Below are positions 10,158 to 57,342 of a DNA stretch of 64,000 nucleotides, one piece after another (position 1 is the stretch's first letter; every line of letters starts with the position of its first letter). Below the pieces are notes generated by a model. It was not told where the DNA came from and ran no database searches. It saw only the letters and a program-made list of their open reading frames with translations. The DNA is taken from the sequence record ON210137.1; one strand, written 5' to 3'. The position numbers and the translations under genes are program-made. This DNA is from Escherichia phage EC150.

Positions 10158-10499
10158 TTAATTTCTTTTGAGAGGAATATGGCGGTTGCTGTCATTATTT
10201 GGTTTAATAATGAGCATAAAAACGATTAGAAAGATGATGGCTGATATACTTAATTCAATCAGCGCGGCTTGAGATATAGATTGATCTTCATGATACTGCT
10301 TTTGCATTTCTGCTTTCTTCTGAGCGCAAACTTCAGGTGATATGTAATCGCCTTTTGAGTTGCCATAATAAATCTCGCCATTCTCAGAAATAAGCCTGCC
10401 GCAAATATCCGTGTCAGCCTTTGCGCTTGACATCATAATAACGGTGCCGATGATAGCGGCAATTGTCCAGATTAGCAGTTGTGATAAGGTATTATTCAT
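10158..10499 (-). CDS. membrane-anchored exported protein (N-terminal signal peptide, C-terminal transmembrane helix)
   Basis: ORF track; hydrophobic N- and C-termini; AAAGAGG Shine-Dalgarno on minus strand. Confidence 0.5.
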   Translation of the reverse strand: MNNTLSQLLIWTIAAIIGTVIMMSSAKADTDICGRLISENGEIYYGNSKGDYISPEVCAQKKAEMQKQYHEDQSISQAALIELSISAIIFLIVFMLIIKPNNDSNRHIPLKRN

Positions 10500-10694
10500 G
10501 ATAACCTCTTTAATTCCCTTCCCATATCGGGAAGGGTGAATATTATTTTACGCGAAAGAATAGGCGCGTGCCACACAGCGAGTCCCAACGGCCCTCACCA
10601 TCCCATATCGACCCAACACCAGCGGTGATTGGGCCAGCAGAATTGGCGGCATTGGCCCAGGCTAGACGTTTCAACTTCCAACTGCACCAACGAT

Positions 10695-10928
10695 TCACAT
10701 TTCATCTCCAGATTGCAAAACAAGTCCCGCATAGATGATTGCTAAAGCTAAAGGCGCACCACTTCCCGCCTCTCTGTTCTCTTTAATCTGAAGAGCATCC
10801 TTAAGGAATTGCAACTGAACGTTGAATTCATTTTCAATTCCAAGCACTCCAGACAATCCTTTTACAGAATCTGCATATGCCTTGTCTAGCACTTCTTTTG
10901 GTACTGTTAAAGTCAATTCATTTGCCAT
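10695..10928 (-). CDS. small protein with C-terminal hydrophobic segment
   Basis: ORF track; internal Met start chosen to limit overlap with upstream gene. Confidence 0.4.
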   Translation of the reverse strand: MANELTLTVPKEVLDKAYADSVKGLSGVLGIENEFNVQLQFLKDALQIKENREAGSGAPLALAIIYAGLVLQSGDEM

Positions 10929-11139
10929 TTTCTTTCCACTCCACGAATGTACTGCCACTTGTTTCTCTATTTAGCAGGTATCTGCCGCGCATTCCATGAA
11001 GGCTGAACTCAACCGTCGATGGATTAGATTTTGAAAGCCACATCACTTGACCGTCGAATGGTCCGCCGATGCATGTGTATTTGGCCTTTGGCTCACTCCT
11101 TTTGGGTCGCTTTGCCCGCTCTTTGATTGATAGTCTCAT
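10918..11139 (-). CDS. hypothetical small basic protein (73 aa)
   Basis: ORF track. Confidence 0.35.
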   Translation of the reverse strand: MRLSIKERAKRPKRSEPKAKYTCIGGPFDGQVMWLSKSNPSTVEFSLHGMRGRYLLNRETSGSTFVEWKENGK

Positions 11140-11354
11140 CAGTCTTCACCTTGAGATTCAAGACAAGTAAGGACAAGCCACGTCATCGGAAGAATCAAAA
11201 CCAGAGAAATAAGTGACCAAATGGACCAACACAAGATGACAGACTTGAATGTGTGAACGTCGCCAAACGTAGCAGTGAAACAAAATCCCATTACGAAAGC
11301 AATCGCTGTGGAGTGATTATCAATGGCTTTGATGGCGCGGTCGATGAGTTTCAT
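11139..11354 (-). CDS. small membrane protein with two predicted transmembrane helices (71 aa)
   Basis: ORF track; two hydrophobic stretches. Confidence 0.45.
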   Translation of the reverse strand: MKLIDRAIKAIDNHSTAIAFVMGFCFTATFGDVHTFKSVILCWSIWSLISLVLILPMTWLVLTCLESQGED

Positions 11355-11435
11355 ATTACCTCCGGTTTTGAGTTAATATGATTATAATGCAGAATTTCAG
11401 AAAGGCAAACTTTTTGTGAATTTAAATTAAAAAAA

Positions 11436-11456
11436 TGGCCAGAAATAATCTGGCCA
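11436..11456. other. palindromic hairpin TGGCCAG-AAATAAT-CTGGCCA flanked by A-tracts on both sides
   Basis: Read directly; T-tract follows on the minus strand; lies at the boundary between the minus-strand block and terL. Confidence 0.4.
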
Positions 11457-11502
11457 AAAAGATCACCCTTTATCCACTACTAAGCTGGAATCATAATTTT
11501 AC

Positions 11503-11532
11503 TTGATATAGCTGTCTCAAGCAAACTATAAT
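11503..11532 (+). promoter_or_regulatory. putative sigma70 promoter TTGATA-18-TATAAT upstream of terL
   Basis: Hexamers read directly; TATAAT ends 1 nt before ATG 11533, which argues for ATG 11566 as the real start. Confidence 0.4.
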
Positions 11533-11565
11533 ATGAATAAAATATTAACACATAATTGGAAAGTC

Positions 11566-12993
11566 ATGTACCAGTTGAATCCTGCTTTAAGAGAAGTCTG
11601 GAAGACGAAAGCGCGATACAAAGTCATATACGGCGGTCGTGCATCTTCCAAATCGCACGATGCCGCTGGTTTTGCTATTTATTTGGCGGCAAACTTCAAA
11701 TTAAAATTCCTTTGCGTTCGACAATTCCAGAACAAGATTTCTGAATCAGTATATACGCTATTAAAAGACAAAATAGAAATTTCTGATTTCAAAGACGAGT
11801 TCAACTTATTAAAGAACTCTATTGAACACAAAAGAACAAAATCTGAATTCTTATTTTACGGTATCGCACGCAACGTTGATGAAATCAAATCAACAGAAGG
11901 CGTTGATGTTCTTTGGCTTGAAGAAGCGCATGCGCTGACTGAAGAGCAGTGGGACATCATTGAGCCGACAATTCGTAAGGAAGGGTCCGAAATATGGATC
12001 ATATTTAACCCTGATGAAGAGGCTGATTTTGTCTACCAGAACTTTGTCATGCGACCGCCGAAGAATGCCATCGTTAAGAAGATTAACTGGCAAGACAACC
12101 CATTCTTGTCGCAAACAATGCTGGATGTTATCGCTGGCATGTATGAGCGCGACCCGAAAAAGGCAGAACACGTTTATGGCGGAGTACCGAAGACTGGCGG
12201 CGACAAGTCGGTAATCAACCGTGCATTCGTCAAGGCCGCGCTAAACCTCCACAAACACCCTACGCTGGGATGGAGCTTGTCAGGGTCTAACCGTATAGGC
12301 TTTGACGTGGCGGACGACGGCGACGACTTAAACGCCACAGCATTTGTCACTGGCAACGTATTGCGCGGCATCAAGACATGGGAAGGTCTGGAGGATGAAT
12401 TGCTTAAGTCCGCAAGCGGAGTCTGGAAAGACGCATTGACATTCGGCGCATCAATCACCTATGACGCCATCGGTGTTGGTGCATTTGCTGGTTCAAAATT
12501 TGATGAGCTTAATGAGTGTGCAATCCATGAAAATCCAACATTCCCAAGAATCGAATTTAATGCGTTCAACGCGCAAGGTGCTGTTGATGATCCTGATGAC
12601 GTTTTCCTTGAGTTACCACACGTTGAAATACTCAATAAAGACCATTTCGCAAACATAAAAGCGCAAAAATGGACTGAGATTGCCGAACGATTCAGAAAGA
12701 CATATGAGTATGCGACAGGGCAAGCCGTATATCCGACCGATGAGTTGATTTCCATCGACACAGACGGCATCCCAGAACTTGGTATTCCCGCTTGGTCTGC
12801 GGAAGAGATTGAGACGTTTCTTTTTGAGATGTCAGCGCCGCGCAAAGATACGTCTGTTCTTGGTAAGTTCAAAGTTGAATCGAAAAAAGATATGGCAAAG
12901 CGTGGAGTCAAATCGCCTAACAAAGCGGACGCAGCAATCATGGCATTGATGAAACCAATTGTTGCAGCATCCGGCTTCTTCTCTAACCTTTAA
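11566..12993 (+). CDS. terL: terminase large subunit
   Basis: Walker A-like YGGRASSKSHD near N-terminus, Walker B-like VLWLEEAH; start of morphogenesis module; GGAAAG Shine-Dalgarno before ATG 11566 (track start 11533 has none). Confidence 0.8.
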   Translation: MYQLNPALREVWKTKARYKVIYGGRASSKSHDAAGFAIYLAANFKLKFLCVRQFQNKISESVYTLLKDKIEISDFKDEFNLLKNSIEHKRTKSEFLFYGIARNVDEIKSTEGVDVLWLEEAHALTEEQWDIIEPTIRKEGSEIWIIFNPDEEADFVYQNFVMRPPKNAIVKKINWQDNPFLSQTMLDVIAGMYERDPKKAEHVYGGVPKTGGDKSVINRAFVKAALNLHKHPTLGWSLSGSNRIGFDVADDGDDLNATAFVTGNVLRGIKTWEGLEDELLKSASGVWKDALTFGASITYDAIGVGAFAGSKFDELNECAIHENPTFPRIEFNAFNAQGAVDDPDDVFLELPHVEILNKDHFANIKAQKWTEIAERFRKTYEYATGQAVYPTDELISIDTDGIPELGIPAWSAEEIETFLFEMSAPRKDTSVLGKFKVESKKDMAKRGVKSPNKADAAIMALMKPIVAASGFFSNL

Positions 12994-41060: not shown

Positions 41061-42038
41061 TTAAAAATACTCCATATCGGTAATATCACGGAAGCATTTA
41101 TACAAGGCAGAGCGCGGCACGTCAACGATGCCAAAGTTGAAGAATTTATATGTCAGATACTTGTTGCGATAATTCTCGCGATTCTCCCAAAGCATTTTTC
41201 TCTCTGCCATAGGCATTGAACCAGCGGATACGCGGAAAGGAATCATTTCACCTTTCTCATCAACATATTTTGGATTGACAACCACAAATGATCCAAGGTA
41301 TCCTTTTGCAACTAAGCCTTCAGCCTCTTTCGAACGCTTAGTGCGACCCAACTCATCAATGAATGCTTCGTTGTTATTCTCCATCATCTCAACGAAGTCT
41401 ATGATCAGACCTTCTTCATCGGTCCACGGCTTGTCCTTCCACACATCACGTGACTTTGGCGTCGCGCGGCCATGCTTGTATTTGCCCGTCCAAGACTTGC
41501 CATACAAGCCTTCATAGCCAAGCTGGTCTGCTTCGATTTGCATCGCCGCGTACTGTTCCATATTTTCGATGTTTCGATATTCGAGAGCGCGAAGGAATGG
41601 GCGTCGACCATGGTTGAGGAGGTGCTGATTGACTTCAGCAACTCTAGCGCGATAGTTTGCATAACGCTTTTCAAAAGGCAAATCAGGGTCGCTGAAGTCA
41701 TCAAACACCCACCATGTAAAGTTAGTGATTGCATCAGTGTTCATGCATGCAGTATAGGCCTGTTGCATGACGTTCTTGTCGTTCGGATTACCGTCAATTA
41801 GCTCTCCATCAAGTCCGTGAATCAATTCACCCAAGAATAGGAACTCTTTTTTGATTTGAATATTGCGCAGCGCCATGCCGGACGTGCCCATTGGCAAGTT
41901 GTCATACGCCATCGCGCGTATGCCATCGACCTTGAAGGATAATCCGCAAGGCAGCGGCACATCTTCGCCGCGCTCGATGATTTGTTTACGCTGACAGCCT
42001 TTCATTGGTTTTAATGCTTTGATTTCTCCTGCCATCAC
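41061..42038 (-). CDS. ATP-dependent DNA ligase (putative)
   Basis: Nucleotidyltransferase motif I KVDGIR (KxDGxR) with downstream motif III-like FLGELIHGLDGELI. Confidence 0.55.
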   Translation of the reverse strand: MMAGEIKALKPMKGCQRKQIIERGEDVPLPCGLSFKVDGIRAMAYDNLPMGTSGMALRNIQIKKEFLFLGELIHGLDGELIDGNPNDKNVMQQAYTACMNTDAITNFTWWVFDDFSDPDLPFEKRYANYRARVAEVNQHLLNHGRRPFLRALEYRNIENMEQYAAMQIEADQLGYEGLYGKSWTGKYKHGRATPKSRDVWKDKPWTDEEGLIIDFVEMMENNNEAFIDELGRTKRSKEAEGLVAKGYLGSFVVVNPKYVDEKGEMIPFRVSAGSMPMAERKMLWENRENYRNKYLTYKFFNFGIVDVPRSALYKCFRDITDMEYF

Positions 42039-42628
42039 TCAAACTCCTTATTCATCACTTGTTCCAGCGCATAGGCATAAGCCTGATCAGTCGATTTGAT
42101 AAACGTTCCGTTGTACATCACACCTTTACGGTCCTTGATGTCTTCATAGGCGGCTTGAGCGCAATCAGACAGTCGAAGTCCATAATCATGTGCTACGCCG
42201 GAAAGATAATCGACTGCGCCCATGATGGTGACATCAATATCCATACTTTGATTTTTAGCAATGGCGTCACCAAGCCGTCCAAGAGTCTTTGCCAAGCGAA
42301 GGATAAACGAGTGAGGGTGAGCGCCTTTGTCAGCGCAACCGCCGCCGTTGATGTCTTCGATTTTTGCACCGTTTTGCGCGGCAAGAATAGTTAACACAAC
42401 AAGGCAATCGCCGATGTCATCCTTGATTGCGGATTGTAAATCACAGATGGCCTGCTCTGTATATCCGATTTCAGGGTCAAAGAACACAAGGTCATGTAAT
42501 TGATCAACGTGGTCGGTCAACTCCCCAAACTCGCTAATAAGCTTCGGGTATTGGTCCTTAAGGTCGCAGCCTTGGATGATGTTACGTTCAGAAGCCCACT
42601 GGCGAATGTTTGCATAAATCTGGTTCAT
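42035..42628 (-). CDS. MazG-like nucleotide pyrophosphohydrolase (putative)
   Basis: All-alpha protein with EFGELTDHVDQLHD and DIGDCLVVL acidic motifs reminiscent of MazG EExxE/D boxes. Confidence 0.45.
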   Translation of the reverse strand: MNQIYANIRQWASERNIIQGCDLKDQYPKLISEFGELTDHVDQLHDLVFFDPEIGYTEQAICDLQSAIKDDIGDCLVVLTILAAQNGAKIEDINGGGCADKGAHPHSFILRLAKTLGRLGDAIAKNQSMDIDVTIMGAVDYLSGVAHDYGLRLSDCAQAAYEDIKDRKGVMYNGTFIKSTDQAYAYALEQVMNKEFE

Positions 42629-43143
42629 TTATTTTCCTTTGATGCGTTGAATTGATCGATTTTAATTTTAGCCTGATTATAAGTATCAATCAAGCTATTA
42701 ACCTTCTCTTTTAATCGGTTTGTTTCTGCGGCGAACTGAACAAGAAATCTGACATCGTCTTCTGATAGTCCACAGTTTCCTTCTGGGATAGAGAGGCGTC
42801 CAGTGGTCGCAGAGTCGGGCACACTCCTGAGTAACTCACGGGAGCAGCTGAGTTGCTCGCGCAGCTTGATATTCCCAGACTTGTAACGAGCAATAGTGTC
42901 ATCAGCAACCAGTTGCGCTTCCTGGCGACCCTTCTCATATGCCGATGCCGATTCAACCTGTAAAGATGCAATTTGCTCTTCGAGTGCATTTATCTTGTCC
43001 TTACGCTCATTAAGCGATGTCAGATATTGATTATCCTTTGCCAGTGATGCGTTGGTTTGCTGCAGGTCTTCAACGTATGATCCAGCGGCAAACGCGCCAA
43101 CAAGGGCAAGAATCTTCAGGAGCGGTACAATTCTTTCTATCAT
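42625..43143 (-). CDS. Rz-like inner-membrane spanin (i-spanin, putative)
   Basis: N-terminal transmembrane helix IVPLLKILALVGAFAAGSYV then coiled-coil region; embedded alternative-frame lipoprotein ORF. Confidence 0.5.
   Translation of the reverse strand: MIERIVPLLKILALVGAFAAGSYVEDLQQTNASLAKDNQYLTSLNERKDKINALEEQIASLQVESASAYEKGRQEAQLVADDTIARYKSGNIKLREQLSCSRELLRSVPDSATTGRLSIPEGNCGLSEDDVRFLVQFAAETNRLKEKVNSLIDTYNQAKIKIDQFNASKENK
42711..42938 (-). CDS. Rz1-like outer-membrane lipoprotein spanin (o-spanin, putative), embedded in alternate frame
   Basis: Alternate-frame ORF inside CDS 42625..43143; signal MRRVARKRNWLLMTLLLVTSLGISS followed by Cys (lipobox-like ISSC). Confidence 0.4.
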   Translation of the reverse strand: MRRVARKRNWLLMTLLLVTSLGISSCASNSAAPVSYSGVCPTLRPLDASLSQKETVDYQKTMSDFLFSSPQKQTD

Positions 43144-43155
43144 GATGCACCAGAT

Positions 43156-43182
43156 AAATAAAAGGCCGCCAATCGGCAGCCT
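43156..43182 (-). terminator. rho-independent terminator on minus strand (GGCTGCC-GATT-GGCGGCC then TTTTATTTAT)
   Basis: Hairpin with one mismatch plus T-tract when read on the minus strand; downstream of CDS 43201..44061. Confidence 0.5.
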
Positions 43183-43200
43183 TGTTGATTTGATTGTCGA

Positions 43201-44061
43201 TTAAAACTCTTCTGCGTCGGTCGGAGTTTCATTGACAGGACCAGCGGCACCGCTTGCTTCTTCCTGCTTGCTGCGGTCAATGTTAACGTTGCCGCCAACT
43301 ACGTCGTTGTGGAATGCTTTGGCGACTTCGTACAAACCTTTGTCCTGCACCAGACCTTCCAGCTCAAACTTCAGAACTGACCATGTGTTGCCGTCTTTGG
43401 ACTGGGATGCAGTACCCATGCGAACGATGTTCATAAAGGTCGGCGGCGTTTTCAGACCCTGCGGAGTCTGAACTTTCTTCTGCTGCAGAGCGGTCATCAG
43501 CATGCGAGACGGCTTGATCATGGAAGAAGTCAGAGACAGCATTGCGCTACCAAATTCACCAGTTTCTTCGTTCAACAGAATCACAAAGTGGTTGCGTGTA
43601 TCTGCGTAGTAAGGCGATTTCTTCTCGTGCACCTTGCCGTTTTCGTCCGGCACGAATACCTTACCGTTGATCTCAACAGCGCGGCCTGCCGCGACTTCTG
43701 CATCAACGTGCTCTTTGGTGAATTCACCTTTAAAGCCTTTATCGTCGGACTCGCGACCGCCCCAAAGGATGAAGGTGCGTTTGAATGCGCAAGGGATGAT
43801 CTGCACGCCTTTCTTACCGTCATACAACTCACCAGTAACGGTGTTGTAAAGCATTCCGGCTTTTGCGCCAGGAACGTGTTTTGGATCATCTTCGTCGACC
43901 ATAGGAGACATCTTCTGCAGGACGACGATAAAAGGAATGGCATACGCATCGGCATCGGCACCTTCAAAACCAGCGCCAAAATCGGTCATGTCGACAAAAT
44001 CAGCCATAGCGGACATCTGGGTGTTTTTCACTGCAACTTCGGTAGTTTCTTTCTTAGACAT
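43201..44061 (-). CDS. putative single-stranded DNA-binding protein (acidic C-terminal tail ending in Phe)
   Basis: 286 aa; C-terminus ...ETPTDAEEF resembles acidic tails of SSB/T7 gp2.5-type proteins; replication module context. Confidence 0.35.
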   Translation of the reverse strand: MSKKETTEVAVKNTQMSAMADFVDMTDFGAGFEGADADAYAIPFIVVLQKMSPMVDEDDPKHVPGAKAGMLYNTVTGELYDGKKGVQIIPCAFKRTFILWGGRESDDKGFKGEFTKEHVDAEVAAGRAVEINGKVFVPDENGKVHEKKSPYYADTRNHFVILLNEETGEFGSAMLSLTSSMIKPSRMLMTALQQKKVQTPQGLKTPPTFMNIVRMGTASQSKDGNTWSVLKFELEGLVQDKGLYEVAKAFHNDVVGGNVNIDRSKQEEASGAAGPVNETPTDAEEF

Positions 44062-44120
44062 TTGATATTTTCCTATAGTATCAAGTTTCGTGGCAACCTG
44101 ATTTCAAGATAAAGGTTAAA

Positions 44121-44678
44121 TTACTTTTTGCTTTTAGGCAAGGTTATTTTAGCTTCTTTGTATTCAAAAACGCTAATATCTTCACTAACTGGATTGCCTG
44201 CTTCCAGCTGTTCTTTTACAAATGACTTCAGTGTAGCAGAATGAACGCCTTGTTTCAAGGTGGCTTCAACACCATCTTCACGCAGCGCGGCAACAATCTC
44301 TTGCGCCTGTTCGATTTCTTCGCGACCAAACTCAGCCGTGACGCTGGACTTGATCAGGCCGCCGTAACCGTTGTTTACAAGCCAATCGAAAACTTTTAAT
44401 TCGTTTTCTTTCTTGATTGAAGCGTTCACCTTGGACTCGACCTTGATTTTGGTCTTGTCCTCAAGCTTGATTTCGGACACGCCAAGCTCATCCATAACGC
44501 CAGGAAGCAAAACAGTTTTGATTTCACTGATACGCTGCTTTTGCATATCAGCTTCATCTTCAAGCTCTGTCAAAGCTTCTTGGCGTTCTGCCAGTTCAGA
44601 TACTAAGCGCGCAAGGCGCTCTTGAATGCTCTCAGGAGCAACCTGCGGCAAATCATCTTCCCAATTAATATTGCTCAT
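44121..44678 (-). CDS. hypothetical acidic coiled-coil protein (185 aa)
   Basis: ORF track. Confidence 0.5.
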   Translation of the reverse strand: MSNINWEDDLPQVAPESIQERLARLVSELAERQEALTELEDEADMQKQRISEIKTVLLPGVMDELGVSEIKLEDKTKIKVESKVNASIKKENELKVFDWLVNNGYGGLIKSSVTAEFGREEIEQAQEIVAALREDGVEATLKQGVHSATLKSFVKEQLEAGNPVSEDISVFEYKEAKITLPKSKK

Positions 44679-45012: not shown

Positions 45013-46536
45013 TTAATTCATCTTTTTGCCGTCGAGGATGTGATCAGCAAGCATAGATTTCATGCTCAGTGAACGCTGAATTTCTTCGTCGATGGTATCA
45101 ACGCCAATAAAATCAACATACAACACGCTTGATTTGGTGCCGATGCGGTGATTTCGGTCTTCGGATTGTTTGCGCAGCTCGTTGTCGTAGTTGCAAGAAT
45201 AATAAATTGCCAAGTCAGCGGCGGTAAGCGTGATTCCGATGCCTGCCGCTGCAGCGTGACAAACCAAGACTTGCGTTCCACCGTTCTCGACTGTGTTTTT
45301 CTGGAAGTCATCAATCAAGAACTCGCGCTGCTCTTTTGACGTCTCACCGTTATATACACCAGTGACCACGCCTTCAGACTCAAGCCAATCCTTAATCTGG
45401 TTCATCTCTTCCTTAAAGATGGCCCAAACGATGAATTTGCGCTCTGGGTCGTCTTCCAGCACCCCTTCCACATAATCCTTAAAGGCCGTGAATCGTGGGT
45501 TGTCTTCCATGTAAACCATCTCATCATACACCTTAACAAAGCCTGATGTCACCTGCTTCATCTTAGTGCGCGACGCGATCATCTCAAACTTGACGTTTTC
45601 TTCTTCGCCCTTGTATTCCATCAAATAGTTGTACTCATTCTTGAGTTCATCGTAAACATCACGTTGTTTAGGCGACAACTCGAAGTCAATAAACTTGTAC
45701 ACCTTCTCTGGAAGGTCAGGCAAGTATTCTGCTTTTGTTGCACGAAAATAGTGCGGTTCCATCAGCCGGATAAGCTTGTCAAGGTTTTTGTACATCGGTC
45801 GGCCAAACTGGTCTTTGCGCGGCACTTGCGGAATCCCATAGCCATTGCCGCCGATTTTCTTGAGGATGGCTTGCATCTCTGGGTCGTGCGCTTCAAGCAG
45901 CACTGTAAATTCAGAGTTAAAGGCACGGAATGATTTAGTGCCGAGCAATCCTGCTTCAAGGAAGTGGTATTGCATGTAAATATCCGCAGGCGAGCGCGGC
46001 AACGGCGTGCCAGAAAGGATTCGACGGGCCTTTGCCAGCCGTCCCAATTCCACAACCTTGATGGAGCGTTTGGCTGTGTTATTCTTGATGCGCGTTGATT
46101 CGTCGATGATCATCAGGCAGCGGTACTTCTTCAAGACCGACTCGATGTGTTGATAACCGACTGGTGTGTTGACAGTGTCGATGTTGAATGAGAAGATGCG
46201 CGCAGGCACTTCGCCTTCGGGGTAGTGATCAGCAAACATCTTCTCCCAAAGCGCCTTGCCCTTTTTAGTTTTCATCTTATCGTTGCCGCGCCAGTAGTGT
46301 CCAATCCACTTGATGGAAAGGTGCTCTGGTGCTTCACGACGAATCCAGTTTGAGTGGACACCGTTTGGAGCGATGACGACCATGGCATCGAACGCGCCAG
46401 CGGCGAAGTGCTTTTCAAACTCTGCCAAAGCGGTCCAAGTTTTACCAAGACCCTGTTCCATGAAATAGGCAAAGTATTTTCTGCGGCCTGCTTTATCAAG
46501 CGCCAGAAGCTGGTGGCGCATCCCTTGTGTTTTCAT
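45013..46536 (-). CDS. SNF2-family (DEAD/DEAH-like) helicase
   Basis: Walker A EQGLGKT, DExx box MIIDESTRIKN, helicase C-terminal region. Confidence 0.75.
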   Translation of the reverse strand: MKTQGMRHQLLALDKAGRRKYFAYFMEQGLGKTWTALAEFEKHFAAGAFDAMVVIAPNGVHSNWIRREAPEHLSIKWIGHYWRGNDKMKTKKGKALWEKMFADHYPEGEVPARIFSFNIDTVNTPVGYQHIESVLKKYRCLMIIDESTRIKNNTAKRSIKVVELGRLAKARRILSGTPLPRSPADIYMQYHFLEAGLLGTKSFRAFNSEFTVLLEAHDPEMQAILKKIGGNGYGIPQVPRKDQFGRPMYKNLDKLIRLMEPHYFRATKAEYLPDLPEKVYKFIDFELSPKQRDVYDELKNEYNYLMEYKGEEENVKFEMIASRTKMKQVTSGFVKVYDEMVYMEDNPRFTAFKDYVEGVLEDDPERKFIVWAIFKEEMNQIKDWLESEGVVTGVYNGETSKEQREFLIDDFQKNTVENGGTQVLVCHAAAAGIGITLTAADLAIYYSCNYDNELRKQSEDRNHRIGTKSSVLYVDFIGVDTIDEEIQRSLSMKSMLADHILDGKKMN

Positions 46537-46955
46537 GACAATTCCTCTAAATACTTGATGATGTGGTGAATAGTTCCCTTCACGATTATCTCACGTTGAA
46601 CGTCTGCAATATTATAACGCTTTAATTCAATCGAAGGGTGGACTAAATAAAACATCTTCTCAGAATCGACTTTAAGCAAAACAAATGATGGGTATTTCCA
46701 ATCATTCCACGAAGAAAGAAAGCTGCACTGACCTTTCTCAAATGCATTTCTGAAAGGTGCAGTGGTGGCCCTTGCAGGCCACGATTCAAAGAACTTCATT
46801 TCAAGCCAAAAGCCGCGCCCTTTCCGGTTGGTGCCGATTACATCCGGCACACCATCACCCGTCATGGATTCGATTCTTTGAAGCTTCAATGCTGATTCTG
46901 AATGCTTCTTCAGGGGCACAAAAATGTATTTTTGTTCACGGTTGTTTGTTGCCAT
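46533..46955 (-). CDS. VRR-NUC domain nuclease (putative)
   Basis: GDGVPDVIG...GRGFWLEMK pattern resembles VRR-NUC; adjacent to SNF2 helicase as often seen; track start 47006 is an alternative. Confidence 0.5.
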   Translation of the reverse strand: MATNNREQKYIFVPLKKHSESALKLQRIESMTGDGVPDVIGTNRKGRGFWLEMKFFESWPARATTAPFRNAFEKGQCSFLSSWNDWKYPSFVLLKVDSEKMFYLVHPSIELKRYNIADVQREIIVKGTIHHIIKYLEELS

Positions 46956-49839
46956 CTGGATACACCTGTTTGATAACGTCGACGATGAACATATCAATGC
47001 CTTCAAGCTTGCGGCCTTTCATCAGGAAGAATGCACCGTTCCCGACGTACTCTGCAATGTACTTCCCGTATTTCTGGAACTTCTCTGGGCGAATCCTGAA
47101 GCGCATTGGCGAGTCGGTCGAATCGTCCTTGCACATAAGGTCGATGAATTGAGTTTCAAGCTTGTTTCCATACTGGTCAAATTCTGCGTAGCGGCCATCG
47201 GCCTGAAGACCCTTTTTAAGCTTGCCGTGCTTTGTATAAATGCCGCGCTCAAGACGTTTACGGATGCGTGTTGCTTCGTTCTCGTCTGCCAGCACTTTCT
47301 TGGTCAGCTTGCCGATTACTATTGCACGCTCATCATCGCCTACTTCCTTCATCTGGCGTATTGAAGCGCCGGAAGTGACGCCAATCAGATATGGGTCATT
47401 ATATGCCCAGCCGAACTTGGTGTGCATCTCTGTAAGGTCGCCGTATTTAACTTCAGCATTGGCCAATGCATCCTTCTGCTTTTGCGTTAAGGTTCCGGCT
47501 TCACGTGCTTCGATGTACTTCATCGCCTTCACCATTCCGTACCCTTTAGCGTTCATGATGCCGCCGATTAGCTTTCCGTTAGCGATGGTCCAGTTCATTG
47601 AAGAGTGATCAGGGTCGATTGGCACATAATCCACGCCTTCCTTCGCAAGTTCACGTAATATCGCAATCGTCTGGTCTTCGTCCTTAGCAGCGCGTAAGCA
47701 AGCAGCGGCAAATTCCAACGGGTAGTGTCGTTTAAGCCACAAGGTCCAGTAGGTTACGACCGCGTATGACACGGAGTGTGACTTGTTAAAGCCCCATGAC
47801 CCGAACGTCGCCATCGCCTGCCAAAGCTTTCTTGCATCCGCTTCCGGTACGCCGTTATTTATTGCGCCTGCAACGAAGTCTTCGCCAAGCTTGTTAAAGT
47901 ATTCCTCGCCCTTACGACCTGACATCGCCTTACGCACGGCTGATGTTTTCGCCCAGTCGAATGAACCAATCTCTTTAACCACGGCCATGATTTGCTCTTG
48001 GTAAAGAAACACGCCGTAAGTCTCTTTTAAGTACGGCTCAAGCTGCGGCACGTCGTACTCAATCGGCGCACGCCCTGCCGCGCGTTCAATGTATTTCTGG
48101 GCCATACCGGATGACAACGGGCCAGGTCGACCAAGTGCTGTCAGGTTATCGATTTTGTTGAAGTTGTCAACGTGCACAAAGTTGGTTACTGAGCGCACAG
48201 CGTCACCTTCAAACTGAAAGATTCCTGACATCTTGTTTTCGTTAAGGATATCAAGGACGCTTTGGTCATCAAGCTTGATTCCGTATAGCGTTTCAGCATC
48301 TATCACGCCAGTATCAGAAATGATTCCGAGGGTGCGAAGACCCAACGCATCAAGCTTCAAAAGGTTAAGGTATTCGCTGTCAGGCTTATCAATTTGCGCA
48401 ATCCCTTCCGCCGTTACCGTACAGTAATCAGAGATTGGGTCATTACACACGATGATTCCCGCTGCGTGAACGCCAGTGTGGGAAGGGTGAATCTCAAGGT
48501 CACCCATGCATCGCGCGGCGTCAGGATATTTCGCCACGAACTCTTGGCCCGTGGTCGTTGTTGCAAAAGTATCCTCCAGGCCGTGACCATAACGGGCGTC
48601 ACCGGATGAGTATTCAAGCAATGCGTTTTTAATGTTGGCCGTTTCGTGATATCCAATGTTGAACTTCTTACCAACCTGAGCCATTACTGAGTTGGCCTTA
48701 AGCGTGTTGATGTTGCCAAGCTTTGCAACGTTCATTTCGCCATATTTTTCTTTAAGGTAATCAAACACCATATAACGTTTGGTGTCCTCAAAGTCAATAT
48801 CAATATCAGGGAGGTCGGCGCGGCTTACGTCGATGAATCGGGCAAATAGCAGCTTATACGGGATTGGGTCAACTTCCGTGATGCCGAGGCAATAACAAAC
48901 CAGTGAACCAGCCGATGAGCCGCGTGCAGGACCGACAAGCATTTTTGTTTTTGCGAATCGTACAAGGTCCGCTACTACCAGAAAGTATGAGTCGAAATCT
49001 TTCAACTGAATCTGGTGAATTTCTTCGTTGAAGCGGTCCTCATATTCCTGAGTCCATTCTTTGATGTGACCTGCTTTGAGACGGTACTCCATCCCCTCAC
49101 GCGCAAGCTTTACCATATCACCAGCAAGGTGAATAATCGGTGCCTTGCGTAATTTCAGGTCAAGTCCGACTATGCCGTTTGCTATGTCAACAGCATTGGC
49201 CGTTGCCTGATTCAGCTCATCTTCCGTCAAGATGCCTTTAAGCTGTTTGCGCAAGTCTTCCGCGTCAACGATGCAGTGCGGCTTGACCGTGTCGCGCACT
49301 TCCCAAGCATAAGCAAAGTCAACGTGCTCAGGTGAAGGCATGTGGTTGTATCCGGTTAAAACCAGCGGCCTTCCGTTGCTGCGGTGAGCCAACACCTGGC
49401 GCTTAGCCAAAAGGAACGATGATGGGTTGACGTCTATATAATCGTAGTCCTCTGGCCGCAGCAGCTCAACGGCACCGCCACAGAATTTAACGACGCCATC
49501 AAGCGCACCGAACTCTTCACGGGTAAGCCCACCGCGCTGCGTTGAAAGTGTTGTAGCGTTGTAAAAAGATTTTAAGTCAAGGGACAGTATCCAAGCCTTC
49601 GGTTTGAATCCCTTTTTCGGGTCCGCATCAGGGTCGATGATTGGAATCTCCATCCCAAACATAGGCTTAATATCATTTTTCTGGCATTCCTTTTCCCAGC
49701 GGACGTGACCCCATGTGTTGTTATCAACTAATGCCGCGACTTCGCAGCCCAACTCTTTGAGCCGTGCTATAATTTCAGGATGCCGTCCATAAACTTCTTT
49801 GAACGTGTAACCGCTGCGAACTCTCAATTGTGGAAACAT
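46936..49839 (-). CDS. dnaE: DNA polymerase III alpha subunit-like replicative polymerase (DnaE family) with N-terminal PHP domain
   Basis: 967 aa; N-terminal PHP-like region; polymerase core motifs; adjacent DnaQ-like exonuclease. Confidence 0.8.
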   Translation of the reverse strand: MFPQLRVRSGYTFKEVYGRHPEIIARLKELGCEVAALVDNNTWGHVRWEKECQKNDIKPMFGMEIPIIDPDADPKKGFKPKAWILSLDLKSFYNATTLSTQRGGLTREEFGALDGVVKFCGGAVELLRPEDYDYIDVNPSSFLLAKRQVLAHRSNGRPLVLTGYNHMPSPEHVDFAYAWEVRDTVKPHCIVDAEDLRKQLKGILTEDELNQATANAVDIANGIVGLDLKLRKAPIIHLAGDMVKLAREGMEYRLKAGHIKEWTQEYEDRFNEEIHQIQLKDFDSYFLVVADLVRFAKTKMLVGPARGSSAGSLVCYCLGITEVDPIPYKLLFARFIDVSRADLPDIDIDFEDTKRYMVFDYLKEKYGEMNVAKLGNINTLKANSVMAQVGKKFNIGYHETANIKNALLEYSSGDARYGHGLEDTFATTTTGQEFVAKYPDAARCMGDLEIHPSHTGVHAAGIIVCNDPISDYCTVTAEGIAQIDKPDSEYLNLLKLDALGLRTLGIISDTGVIDAETLYGIKLDDQSVLDILNENKMSGIFQFEGDAVRSVTNFVHVDNFNKIDNLTALGRPGPLSSGMAQKYIERAAGRAPIEYDVPQLEPYLKETYGVFLYQEQIMAVVKEIGSFDWAKTSAVRKAMSGRKGEEYFNKLGEDFVAGAINNGVPEADARKLWQAMATFGSWGFNKSHSVSYAVVTYWTLWLKRHYPLEFAAACLRAAKDEDQTIAILRELAKEGVDYVPIDPDHSSMNWTIANGKLIGGIMNAKGYGMVKAMKYIEAREAGTLTQKQKDALANAEVKYGDLTEMHTKFGWAYNDPYLIGVTSGASIRQMKEVGDDERAIVIGKLTKKVLADENEATRIRKRLERGIYTKHGKLKKGLQADGRYAEFDQYGNKLETQFIDLMCKDDSTDSPMRFRIRPEKFQKYGKYIAEYVGNGAFFLMKGRKLEGIDMFIVDVIKQVYPDGNKQP

Positions 49840-56157: not shown

Positions 56158-57342
56158 TTAACGCGCTTTCAAATCACGGTACACGGTCAGATTCTTTTTA
56201 GCGCGGGTAATAGCGGTGTACATCATCTTTGCATACGGAACGCCGCGCAGGATTTCTTCCAACACGCACACATTGTCCCACTCGCTGCCTTGCGATTTGT
56301 GCACCGTTATGACATAGCCATAGTCCATGCCTCCAACGGCTCGTTGGGCCTCTTTGCGCACTTCCTGATCAGTAGAGAAGGAAAGAGGATTTATCTTCAC
56401 CTTTATATCTTTGCCATCGGTAAGCGAGCGCAAGTTGACATACATGATTTCATTAGACTCGTCTTCATCCCTTTCAAAGTCCGGCACTGGCTCATAACTA
56501 ATAACAATCCCTTGCTCGCCATTACAGAATCCTGGACCGTGTTGGTTGAATGTGCAAATAACTTTCTCTCCGATTCCTGGCATCGGCGTTATACGTCCGC
56601 TCACTTGCCGCAATAATGAATTCCATTTATCTTTGGTGCTATTATATGAGCAAATAATTTGATCATCTTCGCCCATGAATTTCTTCAACGCAGTAACGCG
56701 CGGCGATTCAGCCAACACCTTGACATCATCGTATTCACGCGGAGGAAGTCGGTTGCCCTGTCGCACGAAGAAGGAAGCGCGGATGATGTTGGACTCTTTC
56801 CCTTGCCGCATGATTTCGGTTAACAGTACGTCAACGGCATCTTCAGTAAAGTAGGCGGCGGCTTTTACCGGAGGGACTTGTCCAATGTCGCCTAATGCCA
56901 GAACAGGGATGCGGTGATCAAGAAGGCGCTCTGCGTCCCACTCGCCAACCATTGAAGCTTCATCAAGGACGACAAGATGCGGCCTTTCATCAAGCGTTGA
57001 CTTCCTTGCAAAGATTGGTTCATTGTCATCGTTAACGCCGCGCACGTTATAGATGAACTGGTGAAGGGTCTTAGCGCCACGACACCCTTTCTGCTTCAAT
57101 CGGCTGGCGGCCTTTCCGGTCGGCGCAATATAAATGGCACCGTACTCACCGACACAACGGCGCACAATCTCACGCGCAATAGAGGTTTTACCTGTTCCTG
57201 CATAGCCAGCGATGAAAAACACGCGCTTCGTTGTTTTGCCGTCCTGCAATCGCTTGTACCATGCAACGGCCTTTTCGATGGCGTCAATCTGTTGCGCGTT
57301 AAACTGAATCACTGGCTCATCATTAAATTCTGGAATGTTCAT
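56158..57342 (-). CDS. Dda/RecD/Pif1-like superfamily 1 DNA helicase
   Basis: Walker A AGYAGTGKTS, Walker B VVLDEASM, C-terminal YVITVHKSQGSEW motif. Confidence 0.75.
   Translation of the reverse strand: MNIPEFNDEPVIQFNAQQIDAIEKAVAWYKRLQDGKTTKRVFFIAGYAGTGKTSIAREIVRRCVGEYGAIYIAPTGKAASRLKQKGCRGAKTLHQFIYNVRGVNDDNEPIFARKSTLDERPHLVVLDEASMVGEWDAERLLDHRIPVLALGDIGQVPPVKAAAYFTEDAVDVLLTEIMRQGKESNIIRASFFVRQGNRLPPREYDDVKVLAESPRVTALKKFMGEDDQIICSYNSTKDKWNSLLRQVSGRITPMPGIGEKVICTFNQHGPGFCNGEQGIVISYEPVPDFERDEDESNEIMYVNLRSLTDGKDIKVKINPLSFSTDQEVRKEAQRAVGGMDYGYVITVHKSQGSEWDNVCVLEEILRGVPYAKMMYTAITRAKKNLTVYRDLKAR

Follow-up and report, generated by a model that had tools for sequence, protein, structure and literature searches.

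The gene at positions 43201..44061 (minus strand) of a 64,000-nucleotide (nt) stretch of Escherichia phage EC150 (ON210137.1; this whole stretch is called the window below) raises the question of what its product does, a protein of 286 amino acids (aa) with an acidic C-terminus that ends in phenylalanine. The coding sequence, stop codon included, runs from an ATG at 44061 to a last codon that ends at 43204, followed by TAA at 43203-43201, and the encoded protein terminates in NETPTDAEEF (GPVNETPTDAEEF; SGAAGPVNETPTDAEEF). A first-pass annotation had reported this open reading frame (ORF) and its C-terminus, both of which are real, but not its strand. We propose that the protein is probably an SSB (single-stranded DNA-binding protein) with an oligonucleotide/oligosaccharide-binding (OB) fold and an SSB-like recruitment tail. 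The points in favour of this reading are the tail, the replication context, the missing SSB, the basic core set against an acidic tail, and the division of tail tips by polymerase type; we infer binding to single-stranded DNA (ssDNA), docking of the tail on partners, and the identities of these partners. The window belongs to Wifcevirus, a group related to the Pseudomonas PB1-like Pbunavirus, and is nearly identical to Escherichia phage ECML-117 and to others of the group.

The 286-aa protein belongs to the Pfam family PF23977 (Pam3_Gp34, 'Pam3 gp34-like'; 289 bits versus a cutoff of 27, E 4e-86, aa 15-259), which is its only Pfam match at E <= 0.1, and to PHROG 2402 ('unknown function'; phrog_2402, E 3.6e-105, aa 3-285), and neither family carries an assigned function. 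When 1.84 billion representatives were searched exhaustively with HMMER, 3,323 clusters were obtained at E <= 1e-3, and 509 phage records contain a PF23977-type protein according to tblastn. Among the records listed, including curated BASEL phages, the protein is 'hypothetical' or unannotated, with a single 'putative holin' as the sole exception. Searches of the literature on Pam3 gp34, on the SSB of PB1-like phages and Pbunavirus, and on the E217 atlas found no paper characterising the protein, and phmmer and profile searches of PDB sequences with the 286-aa protein returned nothing meaningful. As judged from sequence comparison, what is new here is a large unannotated family that has no sequence relationship to the known families of SSBs and is strictly paired with a second family, DUF7307. 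The functional class itself is already well known, namely OB-fold SSBs of phages whose acidic tail serves in recruitment.

The acidic linker and tail of the 286-aa protein occupy aa 261-286 (IDRSKQEEASGAAGPVNETPTDAEEF; 43204..43281, minus strand), carry a net charge of -5, and are probably disordered, given their low predicted local distance difference test (pLDDT) scores. The tip D-A-E-E-F (43204..43218, minus strand) conforms to the family motif A-[DE]-x-F-COOH and is a candidate partner-docking peptide. Acidic C-terminal octapeptides free of Lys and Arg and with an aromatic last residue were found in only 2 of the 190 window ORFs of at least 80 aa. The second such ORF encodes an ATP-dependent DNA ligase (41061..42038, minus strand) ending in KCFRDITDMEYF. 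F is the last residue in each of the 116 close homologues that are full-length (about 50-80% identity), and most have A at position -4 (111/116), E or D at -3 (111/116), and P at -7 (89/116); the linker before the tip varies in sequence and length (entropy of 2.2-3.0 bits per position). Among 142 distant full-length representatives (30-50% identity), the last residue is F in 105, M in 12, and Y in 9 (126 with F, Y, or M), and the last 12 residues have a mean net charge of -2.75. The tail is thus not a product of chance, and its conservation across homologues is a stronger argument for this than the count of 2 in 190. An SSB-like [DE]-[IVLMT]-P-F tip is present in 19 of the 142 distant members, several of which end in exactly DDIPF or DDDDIPF; further tips in this set include DEEIPF, DDTPF, and similar sequences. 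Bacterial SSB canonically ends in DDIPF. For two of the DDIPF-tailed members, the encoding contigs found were only 1.5 kb long and gave no informative gene context. The likeness to SSB- and gp2.5-type recruitment tails proposed in the first-pass annotation is therefore borne out by the low-confidence acidic linker, the conserved hydrophobic last residue, and the occurrence of DDIPF in a distant subset.

The region ahead of the tail was assessed by structure prediction. An AlphaFold model from the single sequence was unusable (pLDDT 36); the model from a 150-sequence alignment (A1) had a pLDDT of 91.1 and a predicted template modelling (pTM) score of 0.86. Met1 was absent from the query, so that model numbering equals protein numbering minus 1. 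A Lys-containing N-terminal extension (aa 1-20, MSKKETTEVAVKNTQMSAMA; 44002..44061, minus strand; pLDDT 63-66) is followed by a compact, mostly beta folded core (aa 21-260; 43282..44001, minus strand; pLDDT mostly 91-98), and in the last three 10-residue blocks the pLDDT values are 77, 50, and 46. The first part of the core (aa 21-60) is acidic (net -9) and holds the best-conserved motif of the family, with the consensus DAGxGFE...AIPFLxxLQKxSPQVD, which in the 286-aa protein reads FGAGFEGAD...AIPFIVVLQKMSPMVD. The remainder (aa 61-260) is a basic beta-rich domain with an isoelectric point (pI) of 8.8. The predicted secondary structure comprises long beta-hairpins and a helix between strands (H178-193 in model numbering), and the order of strands and helix is compatible with a beta1-beta2-beta3-alpha-beta4-beta5 arrangement in the model. 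In the model, the near-invariant residues W99, R155, H157, K182, and W226 fall either on strands or on the intervening helix.

Foldseek found no match to the model in PDB at E <= 1e-3, and the weak top matches were RPA, a Streptomyces SSB, and 9teh. In BFVD, 33 significant matches were obtained, mostly to uncharacterised phage proteins; the named ones included 'Single-stranded DNA-binding protein' (E 1.5e-4) and, lower in the ranking, 'DNA binding protein', 'Recombination directionality factor', more SSBs, and DUF669. The predicted fold is OB-like and nearest to phage SSBs, in the grey zone of structural similarity, and does not indicate any known SSB family. Across the PF23977 family the N-terminus is variable in length, Lys-rich, and basic (mean net charge +1.4 over the first 12 aa), and an N-terminal motif [EDQN][VIL]A[VITL] was observed in 40 of 150 members (27%) versus 0.8% of control windows. 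By analogy, this hydrophobic motif recalls, speculatively, the self-association peptides of T4 gp32 (PMC11551737) and of the TG1 recombination directionality factor (RDF).

The gene lies in a replication module, and its surroundings match the earlier description of a gene set among helicase, ligase, and polymerase genes. On the same strand and 5' of the gene stand, in order, the DUF7307 gene, an 87-aa ORF, an SNF2 helicase gene (45013..46536, minus strand), a nuclease-like 157-aa ORF, and the gene for a DnaE-type polymerase (46936..49839, minus strand); genes for an Rz-like spanin, MazG, and the ATP-dependent ligase lie 3' of it, and a Dda/RecD-like superfamily 1 (SF1) helicase gene is located at 56158..57342. 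The adjacent DUF7307 gene (44121..44678, minus strand) encodes 185 aa that match PF23984 ('Pam3 gp33-like'; E 3e-37) and PHROG 2378. Its product has a coiled-coil-like N-terminal region and a Lys-rich basic C-terminus (ITLPKSKK here, elsewhere for example KPKVKKSKS), opposite in charge to the acidic tail of the PF23977 partner. Searches with DUF7307, including a PDB profile search, gave no link to PDB or to another Pfam family. A possible likeness to Mu Gam or Sipho_Gp157 was suggested by two weak single-member Pfam matches (E 0.009 and 0.02), and a profile-profile alignment of DUF7307 with Mu Gam had a probability of 1%, equal to the negative controls, so that the Gam idea is unsupported.

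The pairing of the two genes was found to extend well beyond the Wifcevirus phages. Six annotated phages that diverge from one another were compared (Pseudomonas Jack, Bordetella MW2, Rhizobium TM26, Acinetobacter pB23, Vibrio K228, and Vibrio QH), and a DUF7307 homologue (E 1e-23 to 3e-7) lies just 5' of the PF23977 member in every case; it is immediately adjacent in five, and in pB23 one small ORF intervenes. An SF2/SNF2 (superfamily 2) helicase gene is present further upstream in the five phages with functional annotation, all genes of pB23 being labelled 'hypothetical', and the gene immediately after the family member encodes a Dda/RecD-like helicase in three of the phages (Jack, MW2, and TM26). 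A degenerate DNA pattern of the conserved motif retrieved 99 IMG/VR loci, compared with about 0.1 expected by chance on a rough estimate. All 99 encode a family member, and in 90 of the 91 loci with enough upstream DNA the DUF7307 gene is directly upstream on the same strand. Two architectures recur, the first with DnaE, nuclease, SNF2, DUF7307, and the family member (27 loci) and the second with PolA, DUF7307, and the family member, with SNF2 further on (24 loci). In PolA-linked loci such as L021, L029, L035, L044, and L047, the pair stands immediately after the gene for DNA polymerase I, and its PF23977 member carries a distinctive x-H-F tip, for example APVQEEETKSHF and PEQDHAETVQHF. Overall, 19 distinct DnaE-linked tails end in -GF, -KF, or -EF, and 16 distinct PolA-linked tails end in -HF, -AF, -PF, or one of a few further tips; the two sets, 35 distinct tails in all, do not overlap.

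We further searched for other SSBs in the same phages. None of the window ORFs matches an E. coli-type, T7 gp2.5, Enc34, or gp3-type SSB. Phage kaset, which is near-identical to the window phage, and MW2 and TM26 each encode their own polymerase, primase, and helicases, and no SSB is annotated or was detected with hidden Markov models (HMMs) in these genomes, of which kaset and MW2 are complete and TM26 is near-complete. Similarly, the 99 IMG/VR loci (935 kb) contain no known SSB type, and an HMM built from the SSBs of E. coli, QH, and K228 had no match in the window or in these loci; in both searches the positive control worked. In Wifcevirus, Pbunavirus, and several other lineages, the PF23977 protein would be the sole SSB-like protein encoded by the phage.

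Taken as a mechanism, PF23977/PHROG 2402 would represent a previously unannotated family of phage OB-fold SSBs with a layout like that of T4 gp32, T7 gp2.5, and bacterial SSB. The basic OB-type beta-barrel core (aa ~61-260) would coat ssDNA at replication or recombination forks, and the flexible acidic linker would present the hydrophobic tip A-[DE]-x-F-COOH for docking on partners in the phage replisome. The Dda/RecD-like helicase and the SNF2 helicase are candidate partners, as are the DnaE-type polymerase and the neighbouring DUF7307 protein, which may be an obligate co-factor. The C-terminus of gp32 recruits Dda in T4 (PMC11551737); because of this precedent and because a Dda/RecD-like gene follows the family member in three lineages, the SF1 helicase is the prime candidate, and the polymerase is another, because the tail tips split by polymerase type. 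The tail could also fold back on the basic DNA-binding surface and tune binding, as in gp32 and gp2.5.

Among the characterised systems, T4 gp32, like RB69 gp32, has the three-part layout proposed for the 286-aa protein, in which a basic N-terminal extension precedes the core, predicted to be OB-type in the 286-aa protein, and the acidic C-terminal tail recruits partners. The gp32 tail ends in Leu, not Phe. There is no sequence similarity between gp32 and the 286-aa protein, the structural similarity score is low, and the Zn-binding His/Cys3 subdomain of gp32 has no counterpart in a protein with one Cys in 286 aa (C91, in IIPCAF). The gp32 tail engages Dda (PMC11551737), and a Dda/RecD-like gene is present in the window as well as next to the PF23977 gene in the three lineages mentioned above. 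The T7-type SSBs, T7 gp2.5 (PF21265) and Enc34 ORF6/DUF2815 (PF10991), are also monomer-sized; their acidic C-terminus is long and unstructured, and their core is OB-type, as is predicted for the 286-aa protein; gp2.5 ends in EDGDF, with a terminal Phe like the 286-aa protein, and doubles as an annealing protein, and the Enc34 module places its SSB beside polymerase, nuclease, and SNF2-type helicase genes (PMC5686142), as is the case for the PF23977 gene. However, no Pfam, phmmer, or hhalign signal connects these proteins to the 286-aa protein, which is longer (286 aa versus 200-232 aa) and has a less acidic tail (7 D/E in the last 26 residues versus 16/29 in Enc34 ORF6).

Bacterial-type SSBs (E. 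coli SSB and Vibrio phage QH gp29) share the disordered linker, the acidic tip, and the C-terminal Phe, which in bacterial SSB forms a protein-interaction hub, and the SSB-like tips of the 19 distant members add to this likeness. In contrast, the PF23977 core is approximately twice as large and does not match the SSB OB domain (PF00436-like), the tip of the 286-aa protein is DAEEF rather than DDIPF, and a true bacterial-type SSB co-occurs in some phages. The phage SSBs TG1 gp25 and phiC31 gp3 double as RDFs of serine integrases; Pfam assigns phiC31 gp3 to PF18897 ('Gp3-like'). Their genes also lie among replication genes, and a short terminal peptide with key hydrophobic residues contacts partners, but they have no sequence or profile similarity to the 286-aa protein (no Pfam match; hhalign probability < 1%). 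Moreover, gp3 ends in NDAIAD without an acidic Phe tail, the partner-binding peptide of the TG1 RDF is N-terminal (F4, L6, W7), and the TG1 RDF is predicted to bind zinc, as opposed to the single Cys of the 286-aa protein. No DUF7307 partner is reported for gp3, and no serine integrase is annotated in kaset.

Several observations weigh against the SSB reading. All 150 of 150 diverse family members match PF23977 and no other Pfam family. The hhalign probability of A1 was < 1% against the single sequences of phiC31 gp3, T7 gp2.5, and Enc34 ORF6 and likewise against 120-sequence gp3-like and Enc34/DUF2815 profiles, the profiles being shallow (number of effective sequences, Neff, 2.3-4.5). The association of tail tip with polymerase type is confounded with phylogeny. 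Finally, other SSBs do occur alongside the family in some lineages. In Vibrio phages K228 and QH, a canonical SSB ending in PPMDFDD[DG]IPF is encoded one to two genes downstream of the family member, which itself has a different acidic tail ending in Met (DDIPAEM or DFPDEM). In Acinetobacter phage pB23 (OR994999.1), an SSB OB-domain HMM matched 11623..11967 (plus strand; E 1.8e-7), which corresponds to a coding sequence annotated as 'hypothetical' (11647..11970), approximately 4 kb downstream of the PF23977 gene; by sequence, this is probably an unannotated short bacterial-type SSB. Since the family member is not the sole SSB in K228, QH, and pB23, it would have a distinct or additional role there, such as annealing, mediation, or helicase coupling, and the family is not simply interchangeable with canonical SSB. 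The earlier suggestion that the protein may be the phage SSB or annealing protein is supported by the lack of another recognisable SSB in the genome, but 'the phage SSB' is perhaps too narrow in view of these lineages. K228 and QH further have genes annotated as 2-aminooxy adenylosuccinate synthetase and dATP triphosphohydrolase, which is consistent with a PurZ-type modified-base genome.

These co-occurrences lead to the strongest of the alternatives, namely that the protein is a single-strand annealing protein (SSAP) or recombination mediator rather than a replicative SSB, that it works with DUF7307, SNF2, and the nuclease to promote annealing or strand exchange, for instance in repair or in replication that depends on recombination, and that the SSB is supplied by a separate phage gene or by the host. 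VP2-like Vibrio phages arrange these genes as helicase, DUF7307, family member, canonical SSB, and PolA, with an HNH gene between the family member and the SSB gene in K228. This arrangement resembles the order accessory-SSAP-SSB of known recombination modules, and pB23 too has a canonical-type SSB. A dedicated module, and not a stand-alone SSB, is suggested by the obligate pairing with DUF7307 (90/91 loci) and by the nearby genes for SNF2 and a VRR-NUC-like nuclease. No recombinase is annotated in kaset or MW2, and T7 gp2.5 combines SSB and annealase activities according to its RefSeq annotation and to PMC2896510. However, the fold neighbours are SSBs and not Rad52-like or RecA-like recombinases, and three lineages with their own replisome have no other SSB. 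As the primary role, this alternative is rather unlikely, and it overlaps the SSB reading, because both need ssDNA binding and the two roles could coexist.

Less probable by a clear step is an adaptor or decoy that does not bind DNA, in which the fold would serve as a helicase or polymerase accessory or as a scaffold, and the tail would mimic host SSB to capture host partners or would tether phage enzymes. The exact bacterial SSB tip DDIPF in a subset of distant members, the canonical SSBs that co-occur in some phages, the grey-zone similarity to OB folds, and the acidity of the whole protein (pI 5.1) all agree with such a role. Against this stand the structural neighbours, which are consistently OB-fold ssDNA-binding proteins, and the basic core domain; in addition, we found no known decoy of this kind for comparison. 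Most members, including the 286-aa protein, have lineage-specific tips (-GF, -EF, -HF) rather than host-type ones, which argues for phage-encoded partners. A lysis or membrane function, suggested by the 'putative holin' label of the Pseudomonas homologue in phiLCL12 and by the Rz-like spanin gene immediately downstream (42625..43143, minus strand), can be dismissed, because the protein has no hydrophobic segment (maximum Kyte-Doolittle 19-aa window 1.14) and hence no transmembrane segment to justify the label, the model predicts a soluble beta-rich fold, the replication synteny is kept in divergent phages without a spanin neighbour, and a terminator-like hairpin stands between the gene and the spanin gene.

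The flanking signals of the gene were read from the sequence. A Shine-Dalgarno-like AGGAAA is located at 44069..44074 (minus strand), 7 nt 5' of the ATG. A sigma-70-like site at 44096-44067 was not counted as a promoter, since it matches at only 9 of 12 positions and overlaps the ribosome-binding site, ending 6 nt before the ATG. The predicted intrinsic-terminator-like hairpin at 43152..43183 (minus strand; AAGGCTGCCGATTGGCGGCCTT, then TTATTTATCT; TTATTTAT) begins 18 nt past the stop codon and has a 9-bp stem with 6 G-C pairs, a 4-nt loop, and a T-rich tail; it is the only strong hairpin of this type on the gene strand between 41000 and 47200.

Some neighbouring genes call for separate comment. 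The spanin gene beyond the hairpin (phrog_1327, E 3e-26) lies inside the replication module and far from the endolysin gene. An ORF embedded in it in another frame (42711..42941, minus strand) contains a lipobox-like LGISSC and has a weak spanin match (phrog_4306, E 0.004), and the arrangement suggests an embedded Rz/Rz1 pair. In its longest reading, the nuclease-like 157-aa ORF (46533..47006, minus strand) shares 71 nt with the 3' end of the DnaE gene, and the ECML-117 record has a shorter, 140-aa version. This ORF belongs to phrog_2165, with a weak Holliday-junction-resolvase-like match and no Pfam match, and its PHROG label 'DNA helicase' looks like a misnaming of a small nuclease-like protein. 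In Rhizobium phage RHph_TM26 (MN988465.1), a 786-aa 'integrase protein' is annotated in the replication module at 10470..12830, the place that a DNA primase occupies in related phages; a legacy note 'similar to integrase' is also attached to the primase of QH, and the TM26 label is probably a propagated misannotation.

If the SSB reading is true, more than 3,300 sequence clusters would gain a function, in a family that nearly all of the annotated GenBank records examined call 'hypothetical'. Current understanding of SSB action in general would be unchanged, and the finding is conceptually unsurprising, but the annotation would be useful for therapeutically relevant phages and provides a clean experimental target. 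Some bacterial defence systems are known to be triggered by SSBs of phages, and an unrecognised SSB family would for this reason matter for the interpretation of escape mutants of the phages that carry it. We put forward, tentatively, a broader possibility in which PF23977 and DUF7307 form a widespread and so far unrecognised two-component ssDNA-handling module that supplies the SSB function, possibly together with annealing or helicase loading, in many phages without a canonical SSB, including therapeutic Pbunavirus. Under this proposal the tip may be tuned to the replisome, with -GF or -EF accompanying DnaE-type and -HF or -AF accompanying PolA-type polymerases, and a copy of DDIPF appearing where the host SSB interactome is hijacked. 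The SSB reading would also define DUF7307 and PF23977 as a conserved gene pair to be studied as a unit, and the variation among tails amounts to a natural experiment on the choice of phage or host partners by SSB tails.

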